DNA from: an uncultured Planctomycetota bacterium
Lineage (GTDB): Bacteria; Planctomycetota; JAJSAM01; JAKLKS01
Reading direction: 5' to 3'
Length of the DNA: 64,000 bases
NCBI GenBank assembly: GCA_964370855.1
Contig: CAYJMF010000001.1
Location: forward strand, 5,905 to 69,904
Of this stretch, positions 1,058-33,733 are shown one piece after another. Positions within the stretch are counted from its first letter, which is position 1. Every line of letters starts with the position of its first letter. A model generated the notes under the pieces. That model was not told the origin of the DNA, searched no databases, and saw nothing but the letters and a program-made list of their open reading frames with translations. A program made the translations under genes and the position numbers.

Positions 1058-1315
1058 GTGGGGCGGGCCACCATGTACCGGCTCCTGGACCAGGGGACCG
1101 TCCCCTCCGTCCGAGTCGCCTCCCTGGGGTCCCGACGGGGCCGGATCCTCGTCGTCCGCGCTGGCCTGGAGTCCTTTGTTGCCGGCCTCACCCCCGCTCC
1201 CGAACCTCATCCCCTCCCCCGTCCCGAGTCCCGGAGGCGGCCCTCGCGCCGCGTGGACGTGGACGCCCTCCGGGCCCGGATCATCGGGATCACCTCCGCC
1301 CGGGAGGCCTCCTGA
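1058..1315 (+). CDS. xis: excisionase / HTH_17-family DNA-binding protein (Xis-like)
   Basis: 85 aa; N-terminus MYRLLDQGTVPSVRV...RILVVRAGLESFV is a typical winged-helix excisionase/MerR-like HTH. Its TGA stop overlaps the integrase ATG (TGATG at 1313-1317), consistent with translational coupling. Confidence 0.6.
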   Translation: MGRATMYRLLDQGTVPSVRVASLGSRRGRILVVRAGLESFVAGLTPAPEPHPLPRPESRRRPSRRVDVDALRARIIGITSAREAS

Positions 1316-2811
1316 TGGGGCAGGAATTCCTCCAGAACTCCCTTGAGGCGCCCCCCGCCACGAGCCCTCATGTGGCCATGATCAACCACCAGACGACCGA
1401 CGCCCCCGGGCCCGAGTCCCGGGACCGACGCTCTGCGTCCTCTCCCCAGGAGGAGGGGGGCCGCCGCCGGCGCCGCCTCTTCGGCCGGATCTACCGCAAG
1501 CCGACGTCCCAGTCGACTTGGTACATCCGGTACCCCGACCCCGAGAGGCAGCGGGCGCCCAACGGTCGGGTCCGAGAGATCGTCCGGTCCGTCCCCACCC
1601 GCCGGGCCGCCGAGGCCCTCCTGGCCGAGGTCCGGCGGGCCCTCTACTCCGGCGCCTACGAATCCCCGCTTCCCGCACTGCCGGCGCCGAGCGCCCCCGG
1701 GACGGCCCCCGCTGTTCCCGGGGACCGCCCACGCACCTTCACCGTCCTCGACGCCCTCGACGAGTTCATCGACACCCGCGAGGCCGCTGGCCGGTCCCCG
1801 ACGACCATCGTCAGCTACCGCGGCCACCGGGATGCCGTCGCGCAGAGTCCCCTGGGGGTCCTCCCCGCCGCCGAGGTCACCCCCGCCGACATCGAGGCCT
1901 TCCGGGCATGGCGGCGGGAGCGGTCCTGGAGGGCCGTGCGCCGCCCCGGGCGCGTGGACGATCCCGATGTGAAGGTGATCCCCCGGGCGGCGTCGGACTC
2001 GACCGTGAACCGGGCCCTCACCGTCCTCGGGGCCGCCTTCAACAGGCTGGTGAAGCTCGGTCGCCTCCGCGAGAACCCCGTCGCCCGGGTCTCCAAGGCC
2101 CGCGAGCCCCGCCACGCCCGGGCCGCCCTCTCCAAGGACGAGGCCCGACGCCTCATCGATGCCGCGGGCCCCCACCTGCGCCCCCTCATCGTGGCCGGCC
2201 TCTACACCGGGGCCCGCCGCGGGGAACTTCTCCGTCTCACCTGGGCCGACGTGAACTTCGAGTCCGGGACCATCGCTCTCTTCCGCCCCAAGGTCGGGAA
2301 CTCCTCCCGGCTCCCTCTCCACCCCCGCCTCGCCGAGGAACTCCTCGAGGTCCGGGAGGCGCGGGCGCGGAAGCGGGGCCGCCCCGTCCCCGACGACGAG
2401 CACATCTTCCTCGCGAGGTCCGGCCGCCCCTGGGTGACCATCCAGCGCGCCTTCCTGAAGGCGCTGAGGACCGCCGGCCTCGAGGGGCGCAAGGGCCTCT
2501 GCTACCACTCGCTACGCCACACCTTCGCCGTCCACTTCCTCGAGGGCGGCGCGGCGGTCCCGGACCTCCAGGGCCTCCTCGGCCACGCGGACCTGACGAC
2601 CACCCAAGTCTACGCCCGCATGGTGGACAGCCGGACCCGAGAGAGCCTCCTGGCGCTGGACTACGGCGGCCCGCGTAGGCCCCCCCGGCCCCCCCGATCA
2701 AGATGTGGATCCCCCCCGCCCCCGCTACAATGCCGCCGTCGCGCCGGGGCACCGCCACAGCGCCCCGTCGCGGCGGACGCGAGCATGCGTGGACACCTCT
2801 TGCGAACCTGA
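1315..2811 (+). CDS. int: tyrosine recombinase / phage-type integrase
   Basis: C-terminal catalytic domain with LYTGARRGELLRL (Arg I), HSLRHTFAV (His-x-x-Arg) and LLGHADLTTTQVYARMV (catalytic Tyr). N-terminal SAM-like core-binding region (TFTVLDALDEFID...). The track ORF 685-2811 is an upstream read-through extension. An alternative start lies at ~1375. Confidence 0.8.
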   Translation: MGQEFLQNSLEAPPATSPHVAMINHQTTDAPGPESRDRRSASSPQEEGGRRRRRLFGRIYRKPTSQSTWYIRYPDPERQRAPNGRVREIVRSVPTRRAAEALLAEVRRALYSGAYESPLPALPAPSAPGTAPAVPGDRPRTFTVLDALDEFIDTREAAGRSPTTIVSYRGHRDAVAQSPLGVLPAAEVTPADIEAFRAWRRERSWRAVRRPGRVDDPDVKVIPRAASDSTVNRALTVLGAAFNRLVKLGRLRENPVARVSKAREPRHARAALSKDEARRLIDAAGPHLRPLIVAGLYTGARRGELLRLTWADVNFESGTIALFRPKVGNSSRLPLHPRLAEELLEVREARARKRGRPVPDDEHIFLARSGRPWVTIQRAFLKALRTAGLEGRKGLCYHSLRHTFAVHFLEGGAAVPDLQGLLGHADLTTTQVYARMVDSRTRESLLALDYGGPRRPPRPPRSRCGSPPPPLQCRRRAGAPPQRPVAADASMRGHLLRT

Positions 2812-2881
2812 GGTCCGCAGCGGAAACCGATGCTCGCGGGCCGTCGCCGCAAGTCGCGCACGGACGCGCAGATGCAACGGG

Positions 2882-2957
2882 GCGGGCGTAGCTCAGTGGT
2901 AGAGCATCGGCTTCCCAAGCCGAATGTCGAGGGTTCGATCCCCTTCGCCCGCTCCAA
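2882..2957 (+). tRNA. tRNA-Gly (anticodon CCC)
   Basis: GCGGGCG acceptor stem pairing with CGCCCGC (7/7). D-arm GCTC-AGTGGTA-GAGC. Anticodon arm TCGGC-TTCCCAA-GCCGA gives anticodon CCC. T-arm GAGGG-TTCGATC-CCCTT, discriminator T, encoded CCA. Folded by eye, not by software. Confidence 0.8.
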
Positions 2958-3057
2958 ATCCCCCCGAGGCTAACAGCCTCATAAGCATGGGGTTACGACG
3001 CTTTCCCTTCCTCCGAACGGTCGGTTTGGCACAACCCGTTTGTGCCCCGAAATGCCC

Positions 3058-3100
3058 CACTTTGCCGTTTCACGGCAAAGTGGACGGCAAAGTGGCGGCG
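3058..3100. repeat. perfect 11-bp inverted repeat (CCACTTTGCCG-tttca-CGGCAAAGTGG) followed by a direct repeat of CGGCAAAGTGG
   Basis: Seen directly. Lies between the tRNA 3' end and the stop of the minus-strand integrase. Candidate integrase arm-type site, att-region element or terminator. Confidence 0.4.
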
Positions 3101-3148
3101 GACCCCGGGATAGGGGGTGCGGCGGTGCTGGAAGGCCCTCGGCGAGGG

Positions 3149-4394
3149 TCAGCTCGCCGGGGCGGTCTCCACGGTCCCGGCCCCGGCCCGCCGGCCCCGC
3201 CGGCGGCGCGGAACGCCCGCCGCGGGAAGCAGGGAGGGGAGACCCTCGACGGCGCCCTTCACGTCGAAGAGGGCGAGGTCGGTGTAGGCCTTCATCGTCA
3301 GCTCCATGGAGGAGTGGCGGGCGAGGGCCTGCACGACGCGGGGATGGAGGCCGAGCGCCGCGAGCGAGGTGATGAAGGTCCCGCGGAGGGCGTGGAAGTC
3401 CACGGAGCGCCCCCCCTCGTCCACCCTCGCGATGCCCGCCGCCTCGAGGTCGCTGTGGAAGGTGCGGATCTGCGGGAAGCGGGCCGACGGGAAAACGGGA
3501 TCCTGCGGCTCTCCCTTCACCGACTTCCAGCGGTACTCCTTGAGCCACCCCGCGAGTTCCTTCCGGAGAGGGACGGACTGGTCCCTCTTCGACTTGGCCA
3601 CCGCCGCCGGAATCAAGACGGTCCCCTTCTCCAGGTCGAGATCCTTCCAGGAGAGGGCCAGCATCTCCCCCTTGCGGAGCCCCGTCCCCGCGGCGAAGGC
3701 GTAGATGAGCGCGCGGGTCTCGCCGAGGAGAAGCAGCCGCGCCTCCTCGGGAGGGGTGACGCCCCTGTGCTTCCTCTCCGCCCGGGCCTGCTCCAGCGGG
3801 CGGCGGCGAGCGGCATCGAGGAGCCGGCGTAGCTCCCCGTCGGTGAGGGCGCGCCGCACGAGGCGGCGATCGGTCTCCTCGTTGAGGGAGCGGATGTTGA
3901 TGAAGGGGTCGTAGGCGAGACGGCGGTTCCGGACGAGCCATCGGCTGAACTGGAGGAGGGCAGCGCGCATGCGGTTCACGGTCCGCGCACTCAGGCCCCG
4001 GTCGGAGCGGCCCTTGAGCCACGCGGAGGCGCGGGGGCCGTCGAGCTCCTGGAGGCCGGTGAGCCCGTTCTCCTCGACGAAGAGCTGGAGGGTCCGCTCG
4101 CGATCCTCCAGGTGGACGGGGGAGAGGCGGCGGGAGGCCAGTTCGGTGAGGAAGTCCTGGACATGGTCGCCGAGGTGGCGTTCGAGCTGGTCGTCGAAGG
4201 GAGTGACGAGGCCGGCGGCCCGGTGCTCTTCCTTCTTCGAGAGGGCGAGGGCCTTGGAGTAGGCGGCCTGCCGGTCCCGGGTTTCGAGGGAACGGCGGAT
4301 CCGCTTCCCGTCCACGGTGAGGTCCACCCAGTAGACCCGGGCCTCCCGGAGCTTCCCCTTCCCCGTGCGGAATCGCGGCTTGTACACGCGCATG
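3149..4394 (-). CDS. int: tyrosine integrase (phage integrase family), transcribed toward the tRNA
   Basis: Start MRVYKPRFRTGKGKLREARVYWVDLTVDGKRIRRSL is the AP2-like N-terminal domain typical of P4/CP4-57-type integrases. The catalytic region has GTGLRKGEMLALSWKDL (Arg), HALRGTF (H-x-x-R) and MKAYTDL (Tyr). The track ORF extends to 4717 as an upstream extension; ATG at 4394 chosen. Confidence 0.85.
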
Positions 4395-4715
4395 GCGGCC
4401 TCCCGACCCGGGGCGCGCCCTGCCGGCGCCCCCGCTCCGAGGAGCCTAACGTGGAGGGGGCCCATCGACTGCTTCTTGGTTGCCGGGGCGGTCCGGGAGT
4501 CCTCCACCGGGGCGGGGCAGGTGCGGGGCCCCCGGGGTAGAGTCCCGGGGTCACCACCGGGAGGTCCCTTGGCTGGTCCCAGATCCGTCGAACCGGGCTT
4601 CGGGCGCCGGATGCCGCGTCTCCCGGCGGTGGAGACGCTCGCCCGGATCCCCCCGCTGGCCATCCTGGTGTTCCGGGCCACGGCGCCGGTGGCGGTGCCC
4701 CGGAAGGCGACCACC

Positions 4716-5375
4716 ATGATGCCGGAGAAGGAGTGGGAGGCGAATCGGAGGATCGAGGCGGCACGGCCGGGGGCCCACGCGGCGTCGATTCGGGCTCTGG
4801 CGCGTTGGTTCCGGCACCGGGAGATCCCCGTCTACCAGGTGACGGCCCGGGCGGCCATGGTCGAGGGGGTGCTCCGGGGGCCCTGGAGGGATACCGACCC
4901 GGGGCTCGTGGGGCGACTGCTCGAGTACCCGGCGAAGCCGCGGGCGTGGGTCGAACTGCTCCCCTACCTCGAACTGTTGCGGCTCCTTCGGGTCGAAGGA
5001 CATCCGAAGGCAGTACTGGCCGCGGCCCGCGAGGCGGTCGTCGGCGCCGAGAAGTCAGGGGATCCCTTGGGGATGCTGCACGGCGTGCGGGAGGTTGCGG
5101 CGATGCTGCAGGAAGATATCGCGATCCTGCACTGGGCGTCGGTCGATGAAGCCCGCGCCGCGGCGGCTCCTTCCGCGAAGGGTGGCACCGACGGGGGGGA
5201 CCCCAAGGACCCTCTGCGAACGATTCCAGAAGCGGCGAAGAGGCTGACGCTGGGGGTCCGAACGGTATGGAGGGCCATCAGCGTCGGACAGTACCGGGTC
5301 GTCCGCCTCTCGAAGAGGGTGGTCCGCATGAAGGAGTCGGAGATCCAGAGGATTCTCCGCAATAGAGAACCGTAG
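4716..5375 (+). CDS. DNA-binding protein with C-terminal HTH_17 (excisionase/MerR-like) domain
   Basis: C-terminus IPEAAKRLTLGVRTVWRAISVGQYRVVRLSKRVVRMKESEIQRIL is an HTH_17-type helix-turn-helix. Divergent from the integrase. Start uncertain (ATG 4716 or 4611; track ORF from 4365). Confidence 0.5.
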   Translation: MMPEKEWEANRRIEAARPGAHAASIRALARWFRHREIPVYQVTARAAMVEGVLRGPWRDTDPGLVGRLLEYPAKPRAWVELLPYLELLRLLRVEGHPKAVLAAAREAVVGAEKSGDPLGMLHGVREVAAMLQEDIAILHWASVDEARAAAAPSAKGGTDGGDPKDPLRTIPEAAKRLTLGVRTVWRAISVGQYRVVRLSKRVVRMKESEIQRILRNREP

Positions 5376-6054
5376 GCTCCCATGGCAGGCCCAGCCTGGC
5401 ATTTGGGGGAGGCTGGGCGATTAGCACCAGTGGTGCGCCATTTCGTCGAAGATATTGGGTTCGGACACGGCGGTGAGGGAAGCGTCGAAGGACCGTTGTC
5501 CACCAAAGCGAGGCGAGTCCAACTATCAGGACGCTCCCGCTACACCTGAGGCGGCTCGATTGGCTCCCTCGACCACTTGCGAGCTGACGATGCATGAGGG
5601 GGATTCGGCACAGCATTTCCCCACTTCCCGATCGGACAGCTTTCTGATGCGACCCGGATCTTGGCCGCTGCCAGACACCCACACTCCAAGCAGACGACAC
5701 CCAACCCTAGCCGACTACAAGGTCCGCTCCGGCCTGGCTCCCCAAAGCAATGTTGGGATCGAACGGACTCCACTTCAGGACTAGCGCGATCGAAGGAAAG
5801 CGCCGCCCTTGACAAGCCGCGGACACCATCCCCGAGACTCCTAGCAAGGGCCCCAACCGTCGGGCGAACTCCTCTACAGCACCTCAAGAACCCCTCCCCA
5901 TCGCGGTTACCAACCCCACTTCCCCACTTCCTCCGCCACTAGTGCCTCGCAAGGTAGTTCTGGTACACCCCCGCCCGAGGGAATCCTGTACCGGAACTTT
6001 CCGCGTGTCGCCCTCGCACTACCTCGCTCCAGCCACGTCCCATGCGCGCGCACG

Positions 6055-6354
6055 CTATTCACACACCAGCGTGACAAACAGCACTGCGAACGAGAACCCC
6101 GCCACCGTCGCCACAACCACCCGAAGCGGCCGCGCAACAATAGAGAGGCGGGCTAGCACGATGCAGGCCACCATACACACGAGAGTAGCGGTCCACACAA
6201 TGCCGGCCACCATGGGCACACCCATGCGATATTCGGTGCTCTGGTTCATGAACGCCGCAAACCACGTTAGGACGCTTGCCCCTGCCGCAACAACAGCCAT
6301 CACCACCGCTCCAAGATTTGCCGCCAGCACCAGTACTCTCTTACCTCGCGGCAT
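6055..6354 (-). CDS. small membrane protein (about 3 TM helices); candidate immunity protein
   Basis: 99 aa, strongly hydrophobic (LVLAANLGAVVMAVVAAGASVLTWFAAF ... VAGIVWTATLVCMVACIVLARL ... VVVATVAGFSFAVLFVTLV). Its start overlaps the stop of the upstream lipase-domain giant protein by 14 nt. A gene immediately downstream of a toxin domain is the classic immunity position. Confidence 0.6.
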   Translation of the reverse strand: MPRGKRVLVLAANLGAVVMAVVAAGASVLTWFAAFMNQSTEYRMGVPMVAGIVWTATLVCMVACIVLARLSIVARPLRVVVATVAGFSFAVLFVTLVCE

Positions 6355-9300
6355 TGCGGAATGCCTCGCCCAGATCCGTTCCTACGCCACCGTCCGTGCC
6401 AACCCATCCAGAGTCTTCGTGCTTTGCATCATAGGTCTTTCCACCGCCCAAATCCCGCGTACTCGGAGCCAGGATCACACTATCAGCTCTAAACACAAGC
6501 TGCCCCAACTTGCTGTACTTTGACATGTATCCGACAAATGCATTCTGAATATTTCCCGGCAAACCGTAGGGCCTCGAATCAATGTTACTCGAGAAGGCCG
6601 GGGGGAACGACACATGAGTATGACCGCGCATTTGCGCCATGTCAGAGTGGTCCATCAAGCCGCTATCCACCGGATCAATAAGCCCGATAAATCGCACCTT
6701 GAGGCCGGCTCCCAAGATCTTGTTGCCCTTGCACCTACAGCCGGCCTTGCTAATGAACCCCGCAATATACATAGCCATGATTGCTCCGCGCGACCACCCC
6801 ATGATATCGATTTTTATTCTATCCTTATCACACCCCGCCTCCAAGTAGGCGCATACCTTCGAGCAGTACCATGCCATAGCCTTGTGCCACACGGCCATGA
6901 ATTCATTCGTATCCTTCAGCAGCCCCTTCCCCAGGGTGTCTGGAACGGTTGCGCTAACTTCAAAGGTATCGTAAAATGTCTCGCCGGTTGCTCCCTTGCC
7001 CTCGGCCGTCTTCTTGTAGGAGTCGCGCTGTCCCTGAATTGTGGTGTTCGTATATGGAGCATTCCCACGATTCCTGCCCCCCTCAAAGAAGAAGCCGAGC
7101 CACAGGTCCTTCTTGCAGGGGTCCTTTACCCCCTCCTTAGAGTCTCTGGTGGCACTTCGAACACCCTCAGTCGTCGCTTGGTCGGGAGGCTGCTTCGGCT
7201 TCTCCGGGACCTTCGGCTCCTCGGAGACAGGCGCTTCCTCCACCTTCTTCTGCGGTGGAACAGGCTTATCGTCCTGCGCCGGTACGGGAGGGCCCTGCTG
7301 CGCGACAGCCGTAACGGAATCTGCTGCACCAGGGAGCCCGATACCAGCAACGGAATCTCCCGTGAGTTTTCTCTGACCATCCATTAGAGGTGTGTCACCG
7401 CCGGATGGAGGAGGTCCCATGGATCCGGGTTGGCCGATATCAGGCGGCGATTCCCCCGCCCCCCCCTTTCCCTTCTCGGCCGGATCACTCGGCTCCCATT
7501 GGCAGGTGGCATTGTTGCACACAGTAGTTGGGGGACAGGGTGGGTCCATATCCTTGCACTTTGGTGGAGGTCCACAATTCGGCCACGTCCCGAGCGGTAC
7601 CACAGCGTCGTCCTGGGGGGCCTTCTTCTTTCTCTCTTCCTCCTTTCGCTTCTTCCACTCCTCCTCGGTCTCGTCGGCTCTCTTCTTCTTGTCTTCTCCC
7701 TCTTGTTCCTCCTCGTCCGCCTTTCTGTCATAGTCGTCCGCGGCCTTATCGGCCCTTGCTGCCTTTTCTTGGTAGAATGCCACAGCAGCCCAGCGACCCT
7801 CCTTCGCCGCTTGGTCCGCCTTCTTCCTGTAGTAGTCGCCCTGCTTCCTTGCCTCGCCAGCCCTTTTCCGGTTCTTCTCAGCCTCAGCGCGGTGTGCCAT
7901 TGCCTCGCGGAACATTGGATCCCGCTTTGCCCGTTCCTCGTCCGCCTTCTTCTGAAGCCTATCAAGTTCCTTCTTGTTGGCAAGTGCCTTCAACTCCAGT
8001 TCCTTCTTTTTCGCTGTATTGGCCTGTTCCTTTGCCTTATTCGACTTCTCCGTCTCCTCCTTGGCCTTCTTCGAATAGTAATCCTGCGCTGCCTTCGTAC
8101 TGGCTTTCTCAGCTTTCGCCGCGAACTCCTTAGCGCGAGCCTCATGCTTGTCCGCGGCGCGGTTGAATTTTTGAGCAGTATCACCGTGCTTCACTCCCTC
8201 CCTGAATAGGGGATCCTCCGCGGCCCTCTCTAAATCTGCGCGTCGCTGGCGCTTGGCTGCCGCCAAGGCCTCGGCAGCCTGTGTGGCACCTTCCGCCCCT
8301 CCTGCGCCTCCCTCCTTCTCAGTGATTTCCTTATATTCCTTCTCATAGTCATCAATCCTCTTCTGGGCACGTTCCGCAGCCAGAGTATCTCCACGCTTTT
8401 CAGCGTCCGCCTTCTCTTGCTTCGCGCGTTCGACGGCCAGCCTAGCCTGTCTCTCTCTGTCGGATTCAGCCAGGAGGTCCGCCGCCTCCTGCTGTAGTCG
8501 ATCAGCTCGCTCCTTTGCTCGTCTGTAGGCTTCCGCATCTCCGCGCTTCGCGGCTCTCTCCGCATCACGGGCCGCACGATCCGCCACGATAGCAGCTTCT
8601 TTGGCCCGGTCTGACGCAGCCCGCGCCCGGGCAACGACGGCGGGGTCGGCATCGTTCTCAGCATCGCGGAGCCGACTTTCCCGCTCGGCAGCGGCACTCC
8701 GAAGGCCCTGTGCTTGGTAGCGAACCTCACGAGCCTTGCGCAGCCCCTCAGGATCTCTGTACTGTTCGTCGTGTTCTCGCTCGCGCTCCCTCTGCTGCGC
8801 CCTTCGTTGAGCCGCCTGCTCTATGAGCCGCAGGATGTCTGAGGAAGGGGCTGTCGACTGCTGCGATGCCTCGAACCCTGACTTCAAGGCGTCGAGGGTC
8901 CAATAATCCAAGTCTGCCTTTGCCTGTGCGTACTCTTCCTTGGCCCTCTCCAGCTTCGTGGCCAGCTCCACTTCCTTCTTCAATGCACCCTTGAACACCG
9001 CGCCGTAGAAGGCCACGCTCTGTTCAATGCGAGCCAACCACGCAGTGTCTTCTGATTGCTCGTCCTCTCGTTTGACCTCACCCAGGATCACTCTCTTGCG
9101 AATTGAGTCTTCTTCTTCCTGAATTGCGCGGTTGTATTGCTCAGTCAAATCCTTGACCACTTCCTCAGCCTTGACCATCCGCTCGAACGCTTCATCCGCA
9201 TTGTTCTCGGCTTCCCCAGCACGCTGTACTGCGCCGACTCCTCCACCACCAGGCCCTCTTGAAGCGACCCCGGCGATTCCTGCAAGGAGATTGGCTCCAT

Positions 9301-11002
9301 GGCTGGATAGACTCGCTCCGATGCCCGGGGAGAACGGGCTAGGCGTCAAGACCCCACCTGAGACCTGAAGTTGTTTCGGAAGCAGAGAGAGCGAGTTCCC
9401 AAGCGGTTCGATGTTCAATTCACCTCTGCCAGCTGCCAACCACGATGGCCGGCTTGGCATTCCAGGCTCCGAGCCCATCAGGCCCATTTTCGTTCCCGCC
9501 GGTTCGCCACCGAACGACACTTGGATGACTTCCCCTCCTGTGACGCGCTGCAGGACTCCCCCTCCTTCATCGGGCCTAGCATAAATCAAATCGTTGACTT
9601 GGCGGACTCCGTCGACATCCTCATCACCAACGACGCCGAAGTCATGCACGCCAGCGTCCTCTTGCCAGTCCACACTCCACGGCTCGCTGTGAGGTGAATG
9701 GAATTCGGTTAACCACTTTGCGCCCCTGTGTCCATCATCCAGGCTTGGTCCGGGTGTTGCGAGGACACCTCCGCCTGGACCAAGGTCAGAGCCTCCGAGG
9801 TCAAAGTCTCCTGAAGTCGGAGGAGCCAGAACCGGAGGAAACCAGGGTCTCTCGAACCTGCTCGGGTCCACTGCGGCTATTACCGAGTCCTGTGGAGAAA
9901 GATAGGGTTCTGCTCTGAACTCCCGGAGTGGGCTGGAGTGAACCGGTGTAATCGTCGAGAGGATTGGTACTGAGGGAGGCTGCGTACTCGAATCGGCTAC
10001 CCCAGCTCCCGTGGTTCCTCCCGGCGGCCTATGGCCCTCTTCCTCTCTCCTTCGGGGCGGAGGCTCATCCGGAAGCGAAGGCAGCGGTCCACCGGACATC
10101 TGCCCTGCAGGAGACGCAAGGGGCTGGCCGCCGGCCACTTCAGAATCTGGCTCCTCATCCGTACGACGCCCGGCGACTGTTACGCCTCCGGAACCAGTAC
10201 CCTTCATCCTCTCTGGTTCCTGGGCCTCCTTTGGCGCTGCCTTTGATGCCAGAGGCGCATGGGAATCACCGGGGAGTTCCACTTCCTTCCCAACCACGGA
10301 GTGTCCCCCAGCCACTCTCAGCCCTGCCACCGACTCCTGCGGTCGCCCTCCGCCCATTGATTGGCCGGAGATACCTTCACCTGCAGGGTCCGCTCCTCCG
10401 GGTCCAGGTGCCATTCGAAAGCCCTGCTCACCGTAGCCCCTCGTAAGTTGCCCAGAGAACATTGAACCTGGGAAAGCACAGGCACCCGTAGGATGGCCCG
10501 AGCATGTACCAGGAGAATTCGGAACTGTGAAGGTGAGCGCCCACAGGGGCGCCACCTCCGGAGGAGGCGACGCGCCCTCGGCAACCTGTCCTTTAGGAGG
10601 AGTGCCCAGGTCAGGAGTGACACGGTCCATCCCTGCCGGCTCTTGGGGGGGGGTGAAAGGCGCATGCGTAGGCAGGCAGTCGCACTTCGCCACACACTTC
10701 TGTCCGCCCCCTTTCCCCACGACATCCTGCTTCGGTACGTCGAATTGCGCGTCCTTGATAGGGAGCGGGGCGCCCTTGGGCGATAAGGCCCCGGCTCCAT
10801 CGCCACCCCCGGCTTGGGAATCTGCCGGAGCCTCGCTCTGGTTCCCCTTGGCGCTTGGTGGGCTAGCCTGCTGCGGTTTCTGGTCCTTCCTGGTGTCCGG
10901 AGGCGTGACTACAGGCTCAGGGCTCCCCTCGCGGGGGGGGGATTCGCATCCCTCGCACCCGCAGTCACCCGAACTTCCTCCGGCACCGGTATTGCAGGCC
11001 AT
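6341..11002 (-). CDS. giant (1553 aa) protein: Gly/Pro/Ser-rich N-terminus, ~600-aa Ala/Lys/Glu/Arg coiled-coil stalk, Cys-rich linker, C-terminal DUF2235 (Tle1-like alpha/beta-hydrolase, predicted lipase/phospholipase) domain
   Basis: AGAGGAG SD upstream of the ATG at 11002. C-terminal region has LWLGFFFEGGRNRGN, the nucleophile elbow IDIMGWSRGAIMAMYIAGFI (GxSRGA) and VRFIGLIDPVDS, which match the DUF2235 triad of signature motifs (FDGTxN / GFSRGA / FLGVWDTV). The central region is a heptad-like Ala/Lys/Glu/Arg repeat (AKEEYAQAKADLDY..., DRAKEAAIVADRAARDAERAAKRGDAEAYRRAKERADRLQ...). The lipase-domain DNA (about 6341-7400) is visibly lower GC (~52-55%) than the flanks. Confidence 0.8.
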   Translation of the reverse strand: MACNTGAGGSSGDCGCEGCESPPREGSPEPVVTPPDTRKDQKPQQASPPSAKGNQSEAPADSQAGGGDGAGALSPKGAPLPIKDAQFDVPKQDVVGKGGGQKCVAKCDCLPTHAPFTPPQEPAGMDRVTPDLGTPPKGQVAEGASPPPEVAPLWALTFTVPNSPGTCSGHPTGACAFPGSMFSGQLTRGYGEQGFRMAPGPGGADPAGEGISGQSMGGGRPQESVAGLRVAGGHSVVGKEVELPGDSHAPLASKAAPKEAQEPERMKGTGSGGVTVAGRRTDEEPDSEVAGGQPLASPAGQMSGGPLPSLPDEPPPRRREEEGHRPPGGTTGAGVADSSTQPPSVPILSTITPVHSSPLREFRAEPYLSPQDSVIAAVDPSRFERPWFPPVLAPPTSGDFDLGGSDLGPGGGVLATPGPSLDDGHRGAKWLTEFHSPHSEPWSVDWQEDAGVHDFGVVGDEDVDGVRQVNDLIYARPDEGGGVLQRVTGGEVIQVSFGGEPAGTKMGLMGSEPGMPSRPSWLAAGRGELNIEPLGNSLSLLPKQLQVSGGVLTPSPFSPGIGASLSSHGANLLAGIAGVASRGPGGGGVGAVQRAGEAENNADEAFERMVKAEEVVKDLTEQYNRAIQEEEDSIRKRVILGEVKREDEQSEDTAWLARIEQSVAFYGAVFKGALKKEVELATKLERAKEEYAQAKADLDYWTLDALKSGFEASQQSTAPSSDILRLIEQAAQRRAQQREREREHDEQYRDPEGLRKAREVRYQAQGLRSAAAERESRLRDAENDADPAVVARARAASDRAKEAAIVADRAARDAERAAKRGDAEAYRRAKERADRLQQEAADLLAESDRERQARLAVERAKQEKADAEKRGDTLAAERAQKRIDDYEKEYKEITEKEGGAGGAEGATQAAEALAAAKRQRRADLERAAEDPLFREGVKHGDTAQKFNRAADKHEARAKEFAAKAEKASTKAAQDYYSKKAKEETEKSNKAKEQANTAKKKELELKALANKKELDRLQKKADEERAKRDPMFREAMAHRAEAEKNRKRAGEARKQGDYYRKKADQAAKEGRWAAVAFYQEKAARADKAADDYDRKADEEEQEGEDKKKRADETEEEWKKRKEEERKKKAPQDDAVVPLGTWPNCGPPPKCKDMDPPCPPTTVCNNATCQWEPSDPAEKGKGGAGESPPDIGQPGSMGPPPSGGDTPLMDGQRKLTGDSVAGIGLPGAADSVTAVAQQGPPVPAQDDKPVPPQKKVEEAPVSEEPKVPEKPKQPPDQATTEGVRSATRDSKEGVKDPCKKDLWLGFFFEGGRNRGNAPYTNTTIQGQRDSYKKTAEGKGATGETFYDTFEVSATVPDTLGKGLLKDTNEFMAVWHKAMAWYCSKVCAYLEAGCDKDRIKIDIMGWSRGAIMAMYIAGFISKAGCRCKGNKILGAGLKVRFIGLIDPVDSGLMDHSDMAQMRGHTHVSFPPAFSSNIDSRPYGLPGNIQNAFVGYMSKYSKLGQLVFRADSVILAPSTRDLGGGKTYDAKHEDSGWVGTDGGVGTDLGEAFRNAAR

Positions 11003-11014
11003 CGCTCCTCTATG

Positions 11015-11374
11015 CTAGCTCAGCCGCTGCTCGAGGAACCCCACCGCCCACCCGGTCAGGACGGGATCAGACCCCGCGATCGTGATCTTGAGCCGGAACC
11101 AGCGCCTCGTCAGGGTCGCGGACATCTGGACCTCGGTGCTGGCCCCGACCGCGGTGGGACCGCCTCCCGTGCAGGTCGACCAGCTGTTCTGATCCGTCGA
11201 CTCCTGCGCGGTCACGCTCCAGGTCGCTCCCGCCGGGACGTCGGGTCCGCGCCAGAGGCTCAGGAGGGCAGTCTGGTACTCCGTCACGTCCATGGCGATC
11301 GTGTAGAAGTCCGTCGCCCCTGCGAACGTGGTGAACCGCGGCACCATCACGACCGGCACGAGCTCGCCCGCCAT
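11015..11374 (-). CDS. small beta-rich protein, paralog family member 1 (PRFT...WRGP...GGG...WFRLKITI...WAVGFLEQRL)
   Basis: 119 aa from ATG 11374 with AGGAGG SD. Shares conserved blocks with the ORFs at 11480, 12363, 12762, 13444 and 13740. Its stop is 13 nt upstream of the giant gene's start. Confidence 0.7.
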   Translation of the reverse strand: MAGELVPVVMVPRFTTFAGATDFYTIAMDVTEYQTALLSLWRGPDVPAGATWSVTAQESTDQNSWSTCTGGGPTAVGASTEVQMSATLTRRWFRLKITIAGSDPVLTGWAVGFLEQRLS

Positions 11375-11479
11375 CTCTTCCTCCTGGGCTCTTGGCCCTG
11401 TCCTGCATCTCACCAGAAACCGTCGTTACCAGGGCCGGCCTCGTTCAGCGCATGCCACGAGCCGTTACCCTACCATCTC

Positions 11480-11848
11480 CTAGACCAGTCGCTGCTCCAA
11501 GTACCCCGTTGCCCACACCGTCACCGCGGCATCCGAGCTTGTGCCCAACGGCAGGTCGATCTTCATCCGCAGCCACCGGCGCCTGAGGTTCTGAGCGATG
11601 ATAGTTGTCAGGTCCTCCCCCGGATCAACCGGGGACCCGAGATCCTGCCATGTTTCCGCATCGTGCGAGTGCTGAAGGACCACGCTGAAAGTCCCTCCAC
11701 CCTGTACGGGACCGCGCCACACTGTCAGGACACAACGGGAGTATCTGTCGACCTGGAGCGCTACCGTCACGAAAGAACTGTTCCCGAAGTACGATGTAAA
11801 GCGCGGAGCCATGACGAGTGGGACCTGAACACCCTTGGGCTGTGCCAC
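11480..11848 (-). CDS. small beta-rich protein, paralog family member 2
   Basis: 122 aa; GTG start with GGGAGG SD. Motifs LVMAPRFTSYFG, VWRGPVQGGGTFSV, RRWLRMKIDL, VWATGYLEQRLV align to paralog 1. Confidence 0.7.
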   Translation of the reverse strand: MAQPKGVQVPLVMAPRFTSYFGNSSFVTVALQVDRYSRCVLTVWRGPVQGGGTFSVVLQHSHDAETWQDLGSPVDPGEDLTTIIAQNLRRRWLRMKIDLPLGTSSDAAVTVWATGYLEQRLV

Positions 11849-11937
11849 TTCAACCTCCCGTTTGGTCTGCCGACCGGTCGCGGCTCTTCACTTCCGTTGG
11901 AACCCGGCGTCGCACGTCAAGCACTCTAGACATCGTC

Positions 11938-12300
11938 CTAGGTGAACTCGATAACAACGACCTGAACGGGAGCGACAAGACCTACGCCGTCGATTTCCCC
12001 CTCGTAGGTTACTCCCGCGGGGAAGGTGAACAGCCCTCCCGGAGGCACGAGGAGGTCCGTAACCAGGACGGGGCCGACACCCAGTCGGATATTCAGGGGA
12101 TTCACGGGGTCCAAGTTCTGGATCAAGACCTGGAACCTCCCTTGAAGCGGCGCAGCAATCGCCATGCTCGCTCCGACGAGGTAGTAGTTCGTCGTTACCC
12201 CGGAGATGGCACCGCGCACGGTGAGCTCGCCCTTCGTACCAACGAGCATCCCCGTCCCGAGTCCTTTCAGGCCGTCTTGGATCATATTGAATTCCGGCAT
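11938..12300 (-). CDS. small Gly-rich beta protein, not a member of the paralog family
   Basis: 120 aa; ATG with GGGAGG SD. Gly/Val-rich (GLKGLGTGMLVGTKGELTVRG...FTFPAGVTYEGEIDGVGLVAPVQVVVIEF). Embedded within the paralog array and co-oriented with it. Confidence 0.65.
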   Translation of the reverse strand: MPEFNMIQDGLKGLGTGMLVGTKGELTVRGAISGVTTNYYLVGASMAIAAPLQGRFQVLIQNLDPVNPLNIRLGVGPVLVTDLLVPPGGLFTFPAGVTYEGEIDGVGLVAPVQVVVIEFT

Positions 12301-12362
12301 CTCGCCTCCCTATGACCGCTTCTTCGTCGGAACTTCCAGCTCCGAACTCCCGTGGCCTGGTT

Positions 12363-12731
12363 CTAAGCCCCAGACCTCTTGTCGAAGTCGCCCACGGCCC
12401 AGCATGTGTACCCGGGATCAGGAGCCCCCCCGGTGATCGTGATCTTCAAGCGCAGCCACTCCGTCTCGAGCGCCGCGAACGCCTGTGCCACCTCCTGCTC
12501 ATCAGCAGGCGTGAAGGGAGTCCCTTCCGAGGTCCAAATCACCAGATCGGGAGATTTCTCGACCTGGACGGAAAACGTCGGAGTACCACCACCGATGGTC
12601 ATCCCCTTCCACACACTCATGTTTGCAGAGGAGTACTGCCGCACGTTCACGGGAGCAGTGGCGTACTCCATCGCTCCGGATAGGCTCGTGAACCTGGGCA
12701 GAAGCACGATCTTGTCCACATCGGCAGCCAT
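12363..12731 (-). CDS. small beta-rich protein, paralog family member 3
   Basis: 122 aa; AAGGAGG SD. IVLLPRFTSLSG, VWKGMTIGGGTPTFSV, EWLRLKITITGG, YTCWAVGDF. Confidence 0.7.
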   Translation of the reverse strand: MAADVDKIVLLPRFTSLSGAMEYATAPVNVRQYSSANMSVWKGMTIGGGTPTFSVQVEKSPDLVIWTSEGTPFTPADEQEVAQAFAALETEWLRLKITITGGAPDPGYTCWAVGDFDKRSGA

Positions 12732-12761
12732 CGTAAGACCTCCTTCATACTGACCTGTGCC

Positions 12762-13133
12762 CTACCGCAGAAGGCCCTCGGCCCAGCACGTTACGCGAGT
12801 GTTCGAACCGTAAATGACGATTCGCAATCTGAACCACCGAAGCCGGAACCCATAGCTGAAGAACCTGCCGTCCGTACCGGGGTCAATCCCGTATGCTGAC
12901 GTGCCCGCTCCCGTAATCCAGTCCTGGCCGTTTAGCGATTCCTCGATGTACATCGTGAATGTCGGAGTAGCCCCACCTCCGAGAGGCCCGCGTCGGAATT
13001 CGAATTCGGCCGACGCGTATTCTGAGATATCCAGTGGCTGGGTCGTGAAGACGAACGAACCGGGCGTCGTTCCCTTGCCGACAAGCGTCGTGAACCTCGG
13101 GAGCAGCGTCAGAGCCGACTTCGCATACCCCAT
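12762..13133 (-). CDS. small beta-rich protein, paralog family member 4
   Basis: ATG 13133 (MGYAKS...) with AGGAGGAG SD; the track ORF extends to 13169. LTLLPRFTTLVG, FRRGPLGGGATPTFTM, RWFRLRIVIYG, VTCWAEGLL. Confidence 0.7.
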   Translation of the reverse strand: MGYAKSALTLLPRFTTLVGKGTTPGSFVFTTQPLDISEYASAEFEFRRGPLGGGATPTFTMYIEESLNGQDWITGAGTSAYGIDPGTDGRFFSYGFRLRWFRLRIVIYGSNTRVTCWAEGLLR

Positions 13134-13443
13134 TCGCCTGCTCCTCCTATGGGCGACAAGTGTGAGCATTGACGCAAACGGTTGACGGATTCAAGACGAA
13201 GTCATTGCTGCCTTGCCTTTCGCGGCGACTCGAGTCCTCGCTGTCCAGACCGATGGTCTCCGCATATTCGGGCCTCCGCCTGGAATGGCCTTGGGCGTCG
13301 CCGAGCTGGGGCATGTCCAGAGGAGGCGCGGGGAACTCGGACCAGGACCGCCTTGCGGGAGCAGATGCGCGCGACAAGTCTCTGGTTCTGCCATCGACAG
13401 CTTGTGCCGGCATGGGTGTTATCCCTACGGGTCTCGAAGGCAC

Positions 13444-13743
13444 CTACCTGTCCCCTTCTCTGAACCAGCGCACTCTCATGCGCGCATCTCCGCCGAATTG
13501 CCGCAGCCGCAACCGTCCCCAAGAAGTCCCCTGCGGTCGGCAGGGAACCGATTGCCGCTGGCCAGGGGACACGACTCCGGAGAGTATCCCGGTCCAGAAC
13601 GACTTGTCCTCGCTACCCTCCAGGACGAAATCGACTGCCCCGGTGTACTGTGGGACGGATTCGACCGCTTCGATGTAGACGACGCCTCCCGCCCTGCAGT
13701 CGAACGGCTCGGTGACGAACTCGTTCGCTTGTTCCACGTTCAC
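13444..13743 (-). CDS. divergent paralog family member 5 (lacks the N-terminal PRFT block)
   Basis: 99 aa; GTG start with GGGGAGGA SD. Its start overlaps the upstream gene's stop (GTGA). VDFVLEGSEDKSFWT and WGRLRLRQFGG...RVRWFREG align with the TFSV...W and WLRLKITITGG...CWAVG blocks of members 1-4. Confidence 0.55.
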   Translation of the reverse strand: MNVEQANEFVTEPFDCRAGGVVYIEAVESVPQYTGAVDFVLEGSEDKSFWTGILSGVVSPGQRQSVPCRPQGTSWGRLRLRQFGGDARMRVRWFREGDR

Positions 13744-14150
13744 TCCTCCCCACCATCCTTGGTGCGCTCCCCTGTCCTGCGTCGGCGCACGGAGGACTGC
13801 CTTCGACTGGCCCTCCCCATCACGGACGGACGGTGGGGCCCGGACCGCGCGGACACGCGCTTCTGGCTCATTGTCGGGAGCTCGTCGGAACCTCGTTCGG
13901 TGTCGTCCGTCTGGATGATCCGGATTGTGAGCTTGCGCCCTATGGGGATGGAGATGGCGCGGAAGGCCGAGACATCGATGAACGCCTGTACTTCATTGCT
14001 TCCGACGATCGTCGAGTATCGCGGGTAGAACTCGAGGGGTACGACCTTCGCATGGGAGGGCTCGGGGGAACGCTTGCGGAAGTCACGCCTCCCTCTCGCC
14101 TTGGCGGCACGCCTCTCCTTGTTTGACTCCTGCCGTGGTCGCGCGCTCAT
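13740..14150 (-). CDS. divergent paralog family member 6 with basic N- and C-terminal tails
   Basis: ATG 14150 (MSARPRQ...) with GGGAGG SD 5 nt upstream; the track ORF extends to 14216. VVPLEFYPRYSTIVG resembles the LLPRFTxxxG block. Highly basic termini (RRAAKARGRRDFRKR; RRQSSVRRRRTGERTK). First gene of the operon. Confidence 0.55.
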   Translation of the reverse strand: MSARPRQESNKERRAAKARGRRDFRKRSPEPSHAKVVPLEFYPRYSTIVGSNEVQAFIDVSAFRAISIPIGRKLTIRIIQTDDTERGSDELPTMSQKRVSARSGPHRPSVMGRASRRQSSVRRRRTGERTKDGGEE

Positions 14151-14291
14151 TCGACCTCCCTTGCGTCCATTGTCGTTCCTGAGTTCCTGTGTAGGCCATG
14201 GCCCCGCTGTCGTCAACTCACCTTTGGAGCGGGGCCTTCACCGTTGGAGCGGACCCCGCTCGAGAGGTTCCACCCGCCCGCATCAATGGCC

Positions 14292-15107
14292 TCACTCGAT
14301 TGGGAAGGGGATGTTTCGCCTAGTGTAGGCTCGATTCAGGGAATAGGCATTCGCGAGGCCAACGGATGCGGCGATCTGACTCTCGCCACGTTGGAGGCGG
14401 ACCCCACTCTGCACCCTTGCGTGAAAGAACTCCCAAGCGACTTCTTCGGGGGGTAGACCTACGGTCGATATGCAGAGACGCTTGAGGACATGGCGATTCA
14501 CTCCGAGTGCTCTGGCCCAGGACTTCACCTGGAAGTCCGACCCCACTTTTAGGGTGAGGAGCGCCTTTCGCATCTTCTCCCTCTTGGAAAGGAGACTGAA
14601 GGGCTTCTCGTCGGAGAGATCCGCGCCTCCGTTCCGGCAGGCCGCCGCAATCCTCTGCGAGATCTCTCCTTCGGGAACGAATTCGATGGGGCATCTGCGC
14701 GCCCAGTCGGCGACCACATGGGCGGGGCAGTCGGGTGCGTCGGCGAAGGAGGTGCAACCGGGCCGTTTCAGGAGTGAAGCGACTACCGAGGGTCTGAGCC
14801 GCATGAGCGCCTCGACCCCGAGGACCACCACATGAGGGCCGGACTGGAACTCCAGCACATGAAGGAGCCTTCGGGCTTCTACCCTGATTGCCGAAAGGTG
14901 GTGACCGTCGAGATTCAAGTCGACGACGCCTGCCAGGATGAGCGGCACGGAAACGGCCGCAACCGATGCCATAGCTTCCAACAATGCAGCCATGGATTCG
15001 CTGGCTGGAGCGACATCGAGGGCATTGGCCTTGCCCCTTCGGGGCTGGAGGCTGGCCGCTGCGGGAGAACCACCTCTTGTGGGGCGATCGCCGCCTTTCA
15101 GTGCCAT
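14292..15107 (-). CDS. AraC/XylS-family transcriptional regulator
   Basis: C-terminal double HTH (VKSWARALGVNRHVLKRL ... IAASVGLANAYSLNRAYTRR) typical of the AraC family. Start ambiguous (15107 or 14993; track ORF to 15218). Confidence 0.6.
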   Translation of the reverse strand: MALKGGDRPTRGGSPAAASLQPRRGKANALDVAPASESMAALLEAMASVAAVSVPLILAGVVDLNLDGHHLSAIRVEARRLLHVLEFQSGPHVVVLGVEALMRLRPSVVASLLKRPGCTSFADAPDCPAHVVADWARRCPIEFVPEGEISQRIAAACRNGGADLSDEKPFSLLSKREKMRKALLTLKVGSDFQVKSWARALGVNRHVLKRLCISTVGLPPEEVAWEFFHARVQSGVRLQRGESQIAASVGLANAYSLNRAYTRRNIPFPIE

Positions 15108-15597
15108 CCCATCCTCGGACTTCATGCACTTGTTCCCTGTCTGCGAGGAACTCCCCGGACCGGCATCCTCGAACTCTCCATCAGTTCCTCTCTCCCCGGC
15201 GCCGGTGGAACCCGGCACTTTCGATTCGTCCTTTTGTCCGCAGTTGCCTCCGCGGCGGCGCGCCCAATGCGCCCCACTGGAGATAGAACGCCCGAGACCC
15301 GCAAATCTGTCGCGGGATCCCGAGAATCTTCCGCAAACCTCCTATCCTCCGGGCCGGCCCCGCCCACCCCCGGGGCCCTACACCCCCCCAGAGGCATTGA
15401 ACCCGCCCCGGAATCGAAAAGGGCCGCTGACCACAGACCGTCCCCCTGCCGGGATGCACTGCCCCCCCGACGAGGGGGACCGCTGCCTGTGTCAGCGGCC
15501 CTTCGAGAGGGACCTTAACGAGAGGCCGGTCCGGAAGTCAAGCGCCTGTTTCGATGCCGGGAGTGCCCCCAGCGTGCGCTGGTCGCCCCGGGCCGGA

Positions 15598-28670: not shown

Positions 28671-30012
28671 CGCCGCGTCCCGGTAGCGGGGGAATCTGGG
28701 GCGAAGCAACCGCCCCGCCGGGGCCTCCGATCTCCTCCTCGCCGGGGAGGGGCTCGAGATCGGGGTTGCTCTCGGTCGGGACCTGGACGCCGCCGAGCAG
28801 GTCCTTCCAGTTGGCGCCGGGGTTCTGCTCCAGGACGGAGAGGAAGTCGGCGAAGGCCTTGATCGAGTTCCGGGGAGTCCGGAAGTAGGAGTCCCCGATC
28901 CTCTTGGAGCAGTGCTCCAGGAAGCCGTGGAGCGCTTCGTCCGGGACGAGGTAGGCCTTCTCGTCGCCGCTGGCATAGACGTGGCGGATCTTCCCGAGGA
29001 GGACGTAGAGGTCCTCCGGGGTGAGGTTGGGAAGGCGCAGAACGGGCCCGCTCATGTCCACGAGGCCGTCCCGGGCGAAGGTGTTCTCGGCGAGGCGCGA
29101 CTGGAGCGCCTGGTAGCTGTAGAGGCCCTTCCGGGTGTCCATCAGGAACTCCGGAGTCCCTCCCTTCACGAAACCCAGCGACTCGGCGGAACCCTGGAAG
29201 CAGTCATTCACGATGCGCAGCACCTGCTCGTAGTTGGCGTTGCGGGCCTGGGTGTGGGCGAGCTTGTAGAGGTTCACCATCTCGTCGAGGCAGACGAGCA
29301 CGCCGCTGAACCCCGCCAGGCGGACGAACCGGGCAAAGAGCTTCAGGTGGTCGTAGAAGCTCGCGTCCTCGATGATGGTCCGTACCCCGAGCGCAGACCG
29401 GGCGTCGGTCCTGGTCGTGAACTCGGCCCGGAGCCACCGGAGCGCGTCGGACATGAGCTGCTCGTTGCCCGTGTCGTGGCCCTTCCAGTAGGCCGCGACG
29501 ACCGCGGCAAAGTCGTAGCCGCCCACCATCTCCGACAGGTCTCGAAGGCGCTCCTGGATGACCTTCTCCGGGCTGACGCCCCGCTCTCGGGCCTCCGTCA
29601 TGGCGGTGCTCACAAACCTCTCCACGACGCTCGGAAGCGCCCCTCCGTCGGGTTTCGCACGGGTGGACAGGTTCCGCATCAGCTCTGCGTAGAGCGAACG
29701 GGCCTGGCCGCCCGTCGCCTGGAGGCGGCGGTCCGGGGTCAGGTCCGCGTGGGCCGTGACGAGCTTCTTCTCCATGGCCACGGCGCGGACCAGGTGGAGG
29801 AAGAAGGTCTTCCCCGAGCCGTACTCCCCGATGACGAACCGGATGGCCGAGCCTCGGTCCGCGATTCGGTCGATGTCCTGCAGGAGGGCCTCGATCTCCC
29901 TGGCCCTGCCGACCTGGATAAGATGCTGTCCCACGCGGGGCACGACCCCGGCCCGAAGCGACTGCAGGACCGCATCCCGGTCCTTCGCGCGGATCTTTCT
30001 CGGCTCGGTCAT
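28642..30012 (-). CDS. sngB: P-loop ATPase (DUF2791-like); second gene of the Shango-like operon
   Basis: ATG 30012 (MTEPRKIRAKD) overlaps the TerB gene's stop (ATGA). Walker A GEYGSGKTF and Walker B VLVCLDEM. The long upstream part of the 823-aa track ORF is read-through noise. Confidence 0.8.
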   Translation of the reverse strand: MTEPRKIRAKDRDAVLQSLRAGVVPRVGQHLIQVGRAREIEALLQDIDRIADRGSAIRFVIGEYGSGKTFFLHLVRAVAMEKKLVTAHADLTPDRRLQATGGQARSLYAELMRNLSTRAKPDGGALPSVVERFVSTAMTEARERGVSPEKVIQERLRDLSEMVGGYDFAAVVAAYWKGHDTGNEQLMSDALRWLRAEFTTRTDARSALGVRTIIEDASFYDHLKLFARFVRLAGFSGVLVCLDEMVNLYKLAHTQARNANYEQVLRIVNDCFQGSAESLGFVKGGTPEFLMDTRKGLYSYQALQSRLAENTFARDGLVDMSGPVLRLPNLTPEDLYVLLGKIRHVYASGDEKAYLVPDEALHGFLEHCSKRIGDSYFRTPRNSIKAFADFLSVLEQNPGANWKDLLGGVQVPTESNPDLEPLPGEEEIGGPGGAVASPQIPPLPGRGDDDLSSFRL

Positions 30013-33605: not shown

Positions 33606-33671
33606 CGGCACCCCACCGTTCAGCGCCCGTCTGCTCCGATTCTCTCCTTCAGCAGCCGGAGGAACTCCCTT

Positions 33672-33733
33672 CATTGCAGCACCCACCATCATCGACGTGA
33701 TGGTTGCTCACGGGAAGGACAATCGTGATTCCC
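33672..33733 (-). promoter_or_regulatory. conserved ~62-bp cis-element, copy 2 (upstream of the TerB gene)
   Basis: cattgcagcacccaccatcatcgacgtgatggttgctcacgggaaggacaatcgtgattccc; see copy 1. Confidence 0.5.

Follow-up and report, generated by a model that had tools for sequence, protein, structure and literature searches.

In a 64-kb stretch of planctomycete DNA (the window, meaning here all 64,000 nucleotides analyzed), a giant gene encoding a protein of 1,553 amino acids (aa) raises the question of how its C-terminal end, or tip, came to be joined to the rest of the protein. The tip resembles lipases of the DUF2235 family, and the G+C content (GC) of the gene drops where it begins. The original prediction, made from the sequence before this analysis, had taken this drop as the trace of a C-terminal toxin and immunity cassette swapped onto a conserved stalk. 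The interpretation that we favor, at a probability of about 60%, is that the giant gene encodes a modular lipid-hydrolyzing toxin that combines a tip of the Tle1/DUF2235 type with an otherwise unique carrier and a coupled membrane immunity partner. The serine hydrolase tip (Ser1404, Asp1443, His1528, and four cysteines) would be the toxic end of the protein, and the carrier would comprise a Pro/Gly-rich region of ~600 aa, a charged helical rod of ~530 aa, and a Pro/Cys linker. A translationally coupled 99-aa membrane protein would shield the producer's own membrane, and the giant gene and its neighbors would be cargo of a tRNA-Gly-linked island that also bears anti-phage defense genes. The analysis shows the fold and family of the tip, its conserved catalytic residues, its presence on different carriers, the recurring membrane ORF, and a flat third-position GC; lipase or phospholipase activity, toxicity, immunity, and export are the parts of this scheme that we infer.

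The predicted hydrolase tip

When 1.84 billion representative proteins were searched exhaustively with phmmer, 26 relatives of the tip were recovered. In an alignment of 18 sequences (A1), the Gly, Ser, Arg, and Gly of the GWSRG motif, Asp1443 in the LIDPVD motif, and the four cysteines are invariant. When compared with the protein sequences of the PDB, the profile of this family matched Tle1 of enteroaggregative Escherichia coli (6sjl_D, E = 9.5e-8), TleB (9j3f, E = 5e-5), and Tle1 of Pseudomonas aeruginosa (4o5p, E = 0.005), with the segments GIFFDGTG, FGFSRGA, and RFLGLFDTV aligning in order between the profile and the solved Tle1 proteins. The AlphaFold (AF2) model of the tip, with a mean predicted local distance difference test score (pLDDT) of 88 and a predicted template modeling score (pTM) of 0.89, is an α/β-hydrolase; its top Foldseek matches are the DUF2235 structures 4m0m, 4o5p, and 9j3f (E = 6e-6 to 1e-4), with generic esterases ranking after them. 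Because the profile and fold evidence upholds a Pfam match that lies below threshold, we place the tip in the Tle1/DUF2235 superfamily as a compact (~260 aa), divergent member predicted to consist of the catalytic core alone. The label "DUF2235-like" given to it originally is thus sustained by family profile and fold, though not by Pfam score. A lipase or phospholipase activity and a toxic role are predicted for the tip. The four invariant cysteines probably form a zinc site or disulfides. A single-sequence, word-indexed protein search with the tip yielded no match, and neither did a scan of viral contigs with the tip alignment.

One module on several carriers

In P0009, P0010, P0011, P0013, P0014, P0022, P0025, and other relatives, the domain begins ("IGIFFDGAG") straight after the DPxGL motif with which Rhs/YD cores finish, and RHS_repeat matches in Pfam confirm that these carriers are Rhs proteins. 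The start point is identical among the relatives, falling at the same first β-strand. A profile search added 74 further proteins, many of them from Planctomycetota and Verrucomicrobiota, with precomputed matches to PF09994 and names such as "RHS repeat-associated protein" or "DUF2235"; a scan of GTDB species representatives found four Planctomycetota loci with the domain, the window's own genome not being among the matches. The closest relatives have an insertion in common with the window's tip and do not sit on Rhs carriers. The closest full-length one, P0006 (30% identity over 284 aa, E = 7e-36), is a 716-aa protein of the Planctomycetota metagenome-assembled genome Bin_16R (GCA_022072415.1), where the domain follows a 440-aa Pro/Gly/Cys-rich N-terminal region. 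P0007 (contig L096) has a short N-terminus before the domain, and P0005 (contig L010) is a contig-end fragment. A "GNPLP...SFTFQY" segment precedes the domain in both P0006 and P0007 and is absent from the giant protein.

The domain therefore follows N-terminal regions of at least four types (Rhs, P0006, P0007, and the giant carrier) with the same boundary. Because the same module recurs with the same boundary on different carriers, we judge the tip to be portable, and the comparison supports its being an ancient toxin module that would have been shuffled, together with an immunity-like partner, over deep time. The occurrence of a toxin domain on different N-terminal carriers is a mark of polymorphic toxins, and the tip displays it. 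Of the toxin-domain shuffling proposed originally, this is the part that stands, the module occurring on several carriers and with a membrane partner; the part that envisaged a recent swap onto a conserved stalk does not, as detailed below. These relatives define a compact, Cys-bearing sub-family of putative Tle1/DUF2235 toxins that escapes Pfam and moves between carriers of the Rhs type and others; Planctomycetota and Verrucomicrobiota are the sources of its named relatives.

A membrane protein coupled to the putative toxin gene

The original prediction had pointed to an immunity-like gene beside the toxin, and a small membrane protein gene is indeed present there. An open reading frame (ORF) of 99 aa with three hydrophobic helices and no match in Pfam directly follows the tip. 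The same topology is seen in ORFs of 109-123 aa that stand directly after the domain in L009/L011 (P0006), L010 (P0005), and L095 (the Rhs protein P0009), so that a three-helix ORF follows the domain in four loci, the window included. That of P0006 encodes 116 aa and overlaps the stop of the toxin gene, and that of L010 is homologous to the window's ORF (33% identity, E = 2e-8). This recurrent placement and topology suggest that the 99-aa ORF is likely the immunity partner protecting the producer's own membrane.

The giant gene and its carrier region

Three dissimilar parts precede the tip (Table 1). The N-terminal ~600 aa are probably disordered and contain clusters of cysteines at residues 3/14/16/19, 103/107/109, and 167/175. 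The first of these lies in residues 1-20 (10943-11002), MACNTGAGGSSGDCGCEGCES, a Cys cluster within the Pro/Gly-rich region. P0006 likewise starts with Cys clusters in a Pro/Gly-rich region, beginning MPGCGCPS, with CCCCCCCECPCEC further on (residues 1-100). Metal binding, cross-linking, and acylation are all possibilities for these N-terminal clusters in the two proteins. The stalk is made up of E, K, R, D, A, and Q to 55-90% in every 40-aa window, and its helical nature is deduced from this composition. The linker ends in DPCKKDLWLG directly before the hydrolase domain, and the same "PC....WLG" junction is found in P0006.

A signal peptide or hydrophobic segment was sought in the giant protein and none was found. 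The whole protein belongs to no family of Pfam, PHROGs, PADLOC, or NCBIfam, and residues 1-1290 taken by themselves match none in Pfam, NCBIfam, or PHROGs. No homologue of these residues was found among the 8,000 word-sharing candidates scored from 5.8 billion proteins, and a scan of viral contigs with the N-terminal region was also negative.

Table 1. Positions of the giant gene, its parts, and other features of the window
Feature	Position	Strand	Remarks
Giant ORF	6341-11002	-	1,553 aa; 1,553 codons open in 60% GC DNA
N-terminal ~600 aa	9203-11002	-	Pro/Gly-rich (G 16%, P 12%)
Charged helical "stalk", ~530 aa (residues 601-1130)	7613-9202	-	A 21, E 15, K 12, R 12, D 8%
Pro-rich linker (residues 1131-1292)	7127-7612	-	P 19%; five Cys at 1143-1167
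Compact α/β-hydrolase tip (aa 1293-1553)	6344-7126	-	Tle1/DUF2235-like; GWSRG elbow, LIDPVD, His in AKHEDSGW
Ser1404, putative nucleophile	6791-6793	-	Invariant alignment column
Asp1443	6674-6676	-	Invariant alignment column
His1528	6419-6421	-	Invariant in close set
Cys1380, Cys1384, Cys1422, Cys1424	within tip	-	Invariant
99-aa ORF, three hydrophobic helices, candidate immunity protein	6055-6354	-	14-nt overlap with the giant gene's stop
Cys-rich zinc-ribbon-like ORF, 115 aa (VCLECGCLAAAKIRVASESCPIGKWG)	5540-5887	-	Next gene downstream; homologues in L010, L015, L016
Five tandem paralogous ORFs, ~100-135 aa ("PRFT...W.RLKI")	11015-14216	-	Directly upstream of the giant gene
Weaker sixth paralogue	13740-14216	-	Likewise upstream of the giant gene
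Unrelated 120-aa ORF among the paralogues	11938-12300	-	Likewise upstream of the giant gene
tRNA-Gly(CCC)	2882-2956	+	Left edge of island
Tyrosine integrase	3149-4393	-	Left edge of island, beside tRNA-Gly
Tyrosine integrase	1315-2811	+	Other flank of tRNA-Gly
PD-Lambda-1 (DUF4041/T5orf172)	19704-22217		Right of the giant locus; E = 3.5e-153
DEAD/Helicase_C protein, BrxC/D-like ATPase (PF10923, E = 1.6e-153), and 1,227-aa TerB_N/TerB/TerB_C protein in a row	26421-33692	-	Overlapping ORF calls

Comparison with known toxins

Tle1 proteins, phospholipase effectors of the T6SS (type VI secretion system; PF09994; 4o5p, 6sjl, 9j3f), have in common with the tip the motif order hGhFFDG, G-x-S-R-G-A, and RF-h-G-h-h-D-x-V, with the Ser and Asp invariant. 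The tip differs from them in its four invariant cysteines, in scoring below the Pfam gathering threshold, and in being the core alone at ~260 aa; Tle1 of P. aeruginosa also has a membrane-anchoring module, D2-D4 (PMC13133936). In the canonical arrangement, Tle1 is genetically linked to VgrG, to a DUF4123 adaptor, or to T6SS genes, and its immunity protein is a DUF3304 outer-membrane lipoprotein (PMC13133936). None of VgrG, DUF4123, T6SS genes, or DUF3304 was seen among the Pfam matches of the window's ORFs, so that the locus lacks the hallmarks of canonical T6SS-associated Tle1, and the immunity candidate here is a small polytopic membrane protein in place of the DUF3304 lipoprotein.

A second comparison is with the Tox-ABhydrolase-1 (DUF2235) domain, which was catalogued as a polymorphic-toxin domain on RHS proteins, those of planctomycetes included, with no immunity family assigned to it (Zhang et al. 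2012, PMC3482391). This class of domain and its link to Rhs proteins have thus been described since 2012. The Rhs tips that follow DPxGL in many Planctomycetota and Verrucomicrobiota belong to the same family, and their boundary is identical to that of the giant protein's tip. Unlike these Rhs toxins, the giant protein contains no Rhs/YD repeats, no DPxGL motif, and no recognized trafficking domain. The small three-helix membrane proteins represent a candidate immunity type for a class that had none in the 2012 catalogue. P0006 resembles the giant protein in its Cys-clustered Pro/Gly-rich N-terminus, "PC....WLG" junction, and overlapping three-helix ORF; it differs in lacking the charged helical stalk, and no homology could be detected between the N-terminal regions of the two proteins.

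Evidence against the toxin interpretation, and its alternatives

Several observations weigh against a modular exported toxin with a dedicated immunity partner. With respect to the tip, the match to PF09994 (E = 0.0015) reaches 18.3 bits where the cut-off is 27, and aligns just 31 residues around GWSRGA, and the TM-scores of the model to the Tle1 structures reach only ~0.5 of the query. With respect to the partner, the membrane ORFs of P0006 and P0009 resemble the window's in topology with no demonstrable sequence similarity (18% identity), and three more distant relatives (L012, L013, and L014) have other downstream genes and no three-helix ORF. No second copy of the tip was found in the 64-kb window, and no orphan toxin or immunity cassette lies downstream. 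With respect to export, the N-terminal trafficking or secretion domain or signal by which polymorphic toxins are also recognized is missing from the giant protein: no domain for secretion or trafficking, no signal peptide, and no element of the PAAR, VgrG, Rhs, two-partner secretion (TPS), or LXG kind is present in it or in the window, and no T6SS, Rhs, TPS, or other secretion genes were detected among the window's ORFs. Finally, the giant locus lies amid anti-phage genes, a setting also compatible with an intracellular role.

One such role would be that of a non-exported abortive-infection or defense effector, in which the rod and disordered N-terminus would sense infection, the lipase would destroy the cell's own membrane, and the membrane protein would anchor or regulate it. 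The lack of a signal peptide or secretion domain would be expected of such a protein. The island supplies suitable company, for PD-Lambda-1, BrxC/D-like, TerB_N, and DEAD helicase proteins are joined, to the right of the giant locus, by further anti-phage genes encoding NERD, DUF4011-helicase-MTES_1575, and Abi_alpha proteins; moreover, two related contigs (L015 and L016) that have the backbone of the element without the giant gene mark the latter as accessory cargo. However, neither the giant protein nor any of its neighbors is matched by a PADLOC model, and the relatives of its domain are overwhelmingly Rhs tips, which is an exported-toxin context. The coupled membrane ORF recurs on Rhs carriers too, which fits immunity better than sensing. 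A defense effector consequently strikes us as unlikely.

The carrier may alternatively be taken further than the toxin interpretation itself does, as a novel, self-contained scaffold for delivering a lipase toxin in Planctomycetota, in which no T6SS is obvious here. The rod, which would measure ~80 nm if it were a single helix, would present or inject the tip, perhaps with the jelly-roll paralogues encoded upstream as a fiber; the Cys clusters would serve for metal binding or disulfide cross-links, and the membrane proteins would constitute the first immunity family for Tox-ABhydrolase-1. We hold this fuller picture to be quite doubtful. A Pro/Gly/Cys-rich and charged-helix carrier for which no homologues were found represents an unexplained form of toxin presentation, and is not demonstrated as a new secretion principle.

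It is also conceivable that the N-terminal ~440-600 codons are untranslated or decaying, in which case the true product would be a shorter protein of ~1,110 aa and the "giant" architecture would be due in part to annotation. Some gene callers do place the start at about residue 444 on identical DNA (P0002, 26 contigs), and the cluster members of 1,110 aa and 1,318 aa are alternative start calls on the same DNA. GC at third codon positions (GC3) is at its lowest (0.54-0.59) over codons 100-600, and neither homologue nor domain was found for the N-terminal region. Against this, the frame stays open through all its codons despite the GC content of the DNA (Table 1), its ATG at 11002 follows the upstream gene's stop by 13 nt, and P0006 has a similar Pro/Gly/Cys-rich N-terminal region before the same domain. 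A shorter product is, in our view, very unlikely.

Base composition and the case for a recent swap

The drop in GC that prompted the idea of a swap is real. The segment 6341-7400 has 55.9% GC, with 300-nt windows over 6301-7200 ranging from 53 to 56%, as against 58.7% in the stalk (7613-9202), 62.8% in the N-terminal part of the gene, and 73-74% at the ends of the 64-kb window; the figures originally given for tip, stalk, and surroundings are thereby borne out. Total GC accordingly falls from ~59-63% to ~54% at the tip, as would be expected were a portable toxin module beside an immunity-like gene to have been recombined recently, along with that gene, onto a conserved N-terminus and stalk, leaving a scar at ~7400.

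At synonymous sites, the step is absent. GC3 is 0.59 in the N-terminal part, 0.65-0.66 in the stalk, and 0.65 in the tip; the fall in the tip sits in GC1 (GC at first codon positions; 0.51, as against 0.68-0.71) and GC2 (at second positions). Given the amino acids of the tip and the synonymous codons used elsewhere in the gene, a GC of 0.542 is expected, and 0.544 is observed; the corresponding values for GC3 are 0.636 and 0.654 (binomial standard error 0.03). The tip has a lower GC because of its amino-acid make-up, with fewer Ala, Glu, Arg, Pro, and Gly codons and more Lys, Phe, Ile, Tyr, Ser, and Thr codons. Amino-acid content thus explains the whole of the step, which carries no signature of foreign DNA. 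Hence the sliding-window and codon-usage analysis proposed with the original prediction recovers the step in total GC and shows none at third positions. An in-gene drop in GC is no evidence of a cassette swap unless it is visible at synonymous sites, where here it is not.

The unit that does stand out compositionally is larger, spanning the giant gene and its neighbors from 5.4 to 15.3 kb at 61% GC. Within this block, GC3 is 0.62 for the whole giant gene, 0.68 for the 99-aa ORF, 0.59 for the Cys-rich gene, and mostly 0.71-0.76 for the upstream small genes, whereas the integrase, helix-turn-helix, and host-like genes bordering it have values of 0.85-0.93. The immunity-like gene had been assigned to the same 52-55% GC block as the tip; at 60% GC, it resembles instead the rest of this general block.

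Nor did a conserved stalk come to light. A word-indexed search of 5.8 billion proteins with the giant protein, in which 8,000 word-sharing candidates were scored for what is a low-complexity sequence, returned the protein itself alone, and therefore no second protein with its N-terminus or stalk. Every contig that bears the giant gene (L001-L007, from metagenomes) matches the window at 99.9-100% identity. L010, the single syntenic relative and a fragment from SRR20217207, is 54-56% identical in the tip, 33-36% in the membrane ORF, and 50-51% in the next, Cys-rich gene, a pattern indicative of co-divergence of the three genes and not of replacement. Within positions 1-60 of L010, an in-frame stop lies 14-16 nt from the contig edge and shortly upstream of the tip's conserved "DDTNEF"; possible accounts of this tip are a cassette that is orphaned or truncated, a pseudogene, and an assembly-end error. 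L015 and L016 encode Cys-rich proteins 51% and 48% identical to the window's, directly preceded by jelly-roll homologues, and have neither giant gene nor membrane ORF. Because these two contigs lack both genes, the variable unit so far is the whole toxin gene with its partner, set in a conserved backbone, rather than the C-terminus alone. A recent swap of the C-terminal cassette is, on these grounds, highly improbable.

Neighboring genes and the island

The Cys-rich gene downstream of the membrane ORF belongs to the backbone of the element and not to the toxin pair. Its family (C..C.C...K.R..SE.CP.GKW) is very widespread, JGI metagenomes containing 285 relatives whose contigs range over 35-72% GC, and its closest members begin MGCC, MGGCC, or MRCC. 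The gene has no match in Pfam and none in the viral-contig scan, and tblastn against phage genomes was negative. Tblastn of one of the upstream paralogues against phage genomes likewise gave no match. These paralogues are predicted to adopt 8-stranded jelly rolls (pLDDT 81), and a fold search with one of them gave matches to generic folds alone: the birnavirus VP2 P domain, the Eph ligand-binding domain, carbohydrate-binding modules, and the spore-fiber subunit Ena2A. Searches of the giant gene and its neighbors against PHROGs, PADLOC, and NCBIfam produced nothing except two weak PHROG matches on the paralogues. A reading of the helical protein as a prophage tape-measure protein was dropped, there being no phage structural genes and no PHROG matches to it.

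The left edge of the island is marked by the tRNA-Gly gene and an integrase gene, with a second integrase gene on the other flank of the tRNA gene (Table 1). An integrase fragment that is almost identical bears the annotation "Planctomycetes bacterium", and the genomes matched by the tip family are all Planctomycetota, so that the host is probably a high-GC planctomycete. A direct repeat of the tRNA-Gly 3' end, as would form an attachment (att) site, was not found in any part of the 64 kb. Right of the giant locus, the row of DEAD/Helicase_C, BrxC/D-like, and TerB genes looks like a multi-gene defense system; this side also encodes an IS1595 transposase, S8 peptidases together with an AAA ATPase, and proteins of the radical-SAM and Hypoth_Ymh kinds, one of each. 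Between the low-GC block and the defense genes lies an 894-aa ORF (15598-18282, minus strand) that is host-like in composition (GC 74%, GC3 0.92) and kept in all related contigs; it has no match in Pfam, PHROGs, PADLOC, or NCBIfam. Positions 1-1181 of contig L002 are part of a contig collinear with the window over 2862-19623 and divergent beyond, just before PD-Lambda-1, and the point of divergence at ~19623 looks like a strain-variable junction inside the island.

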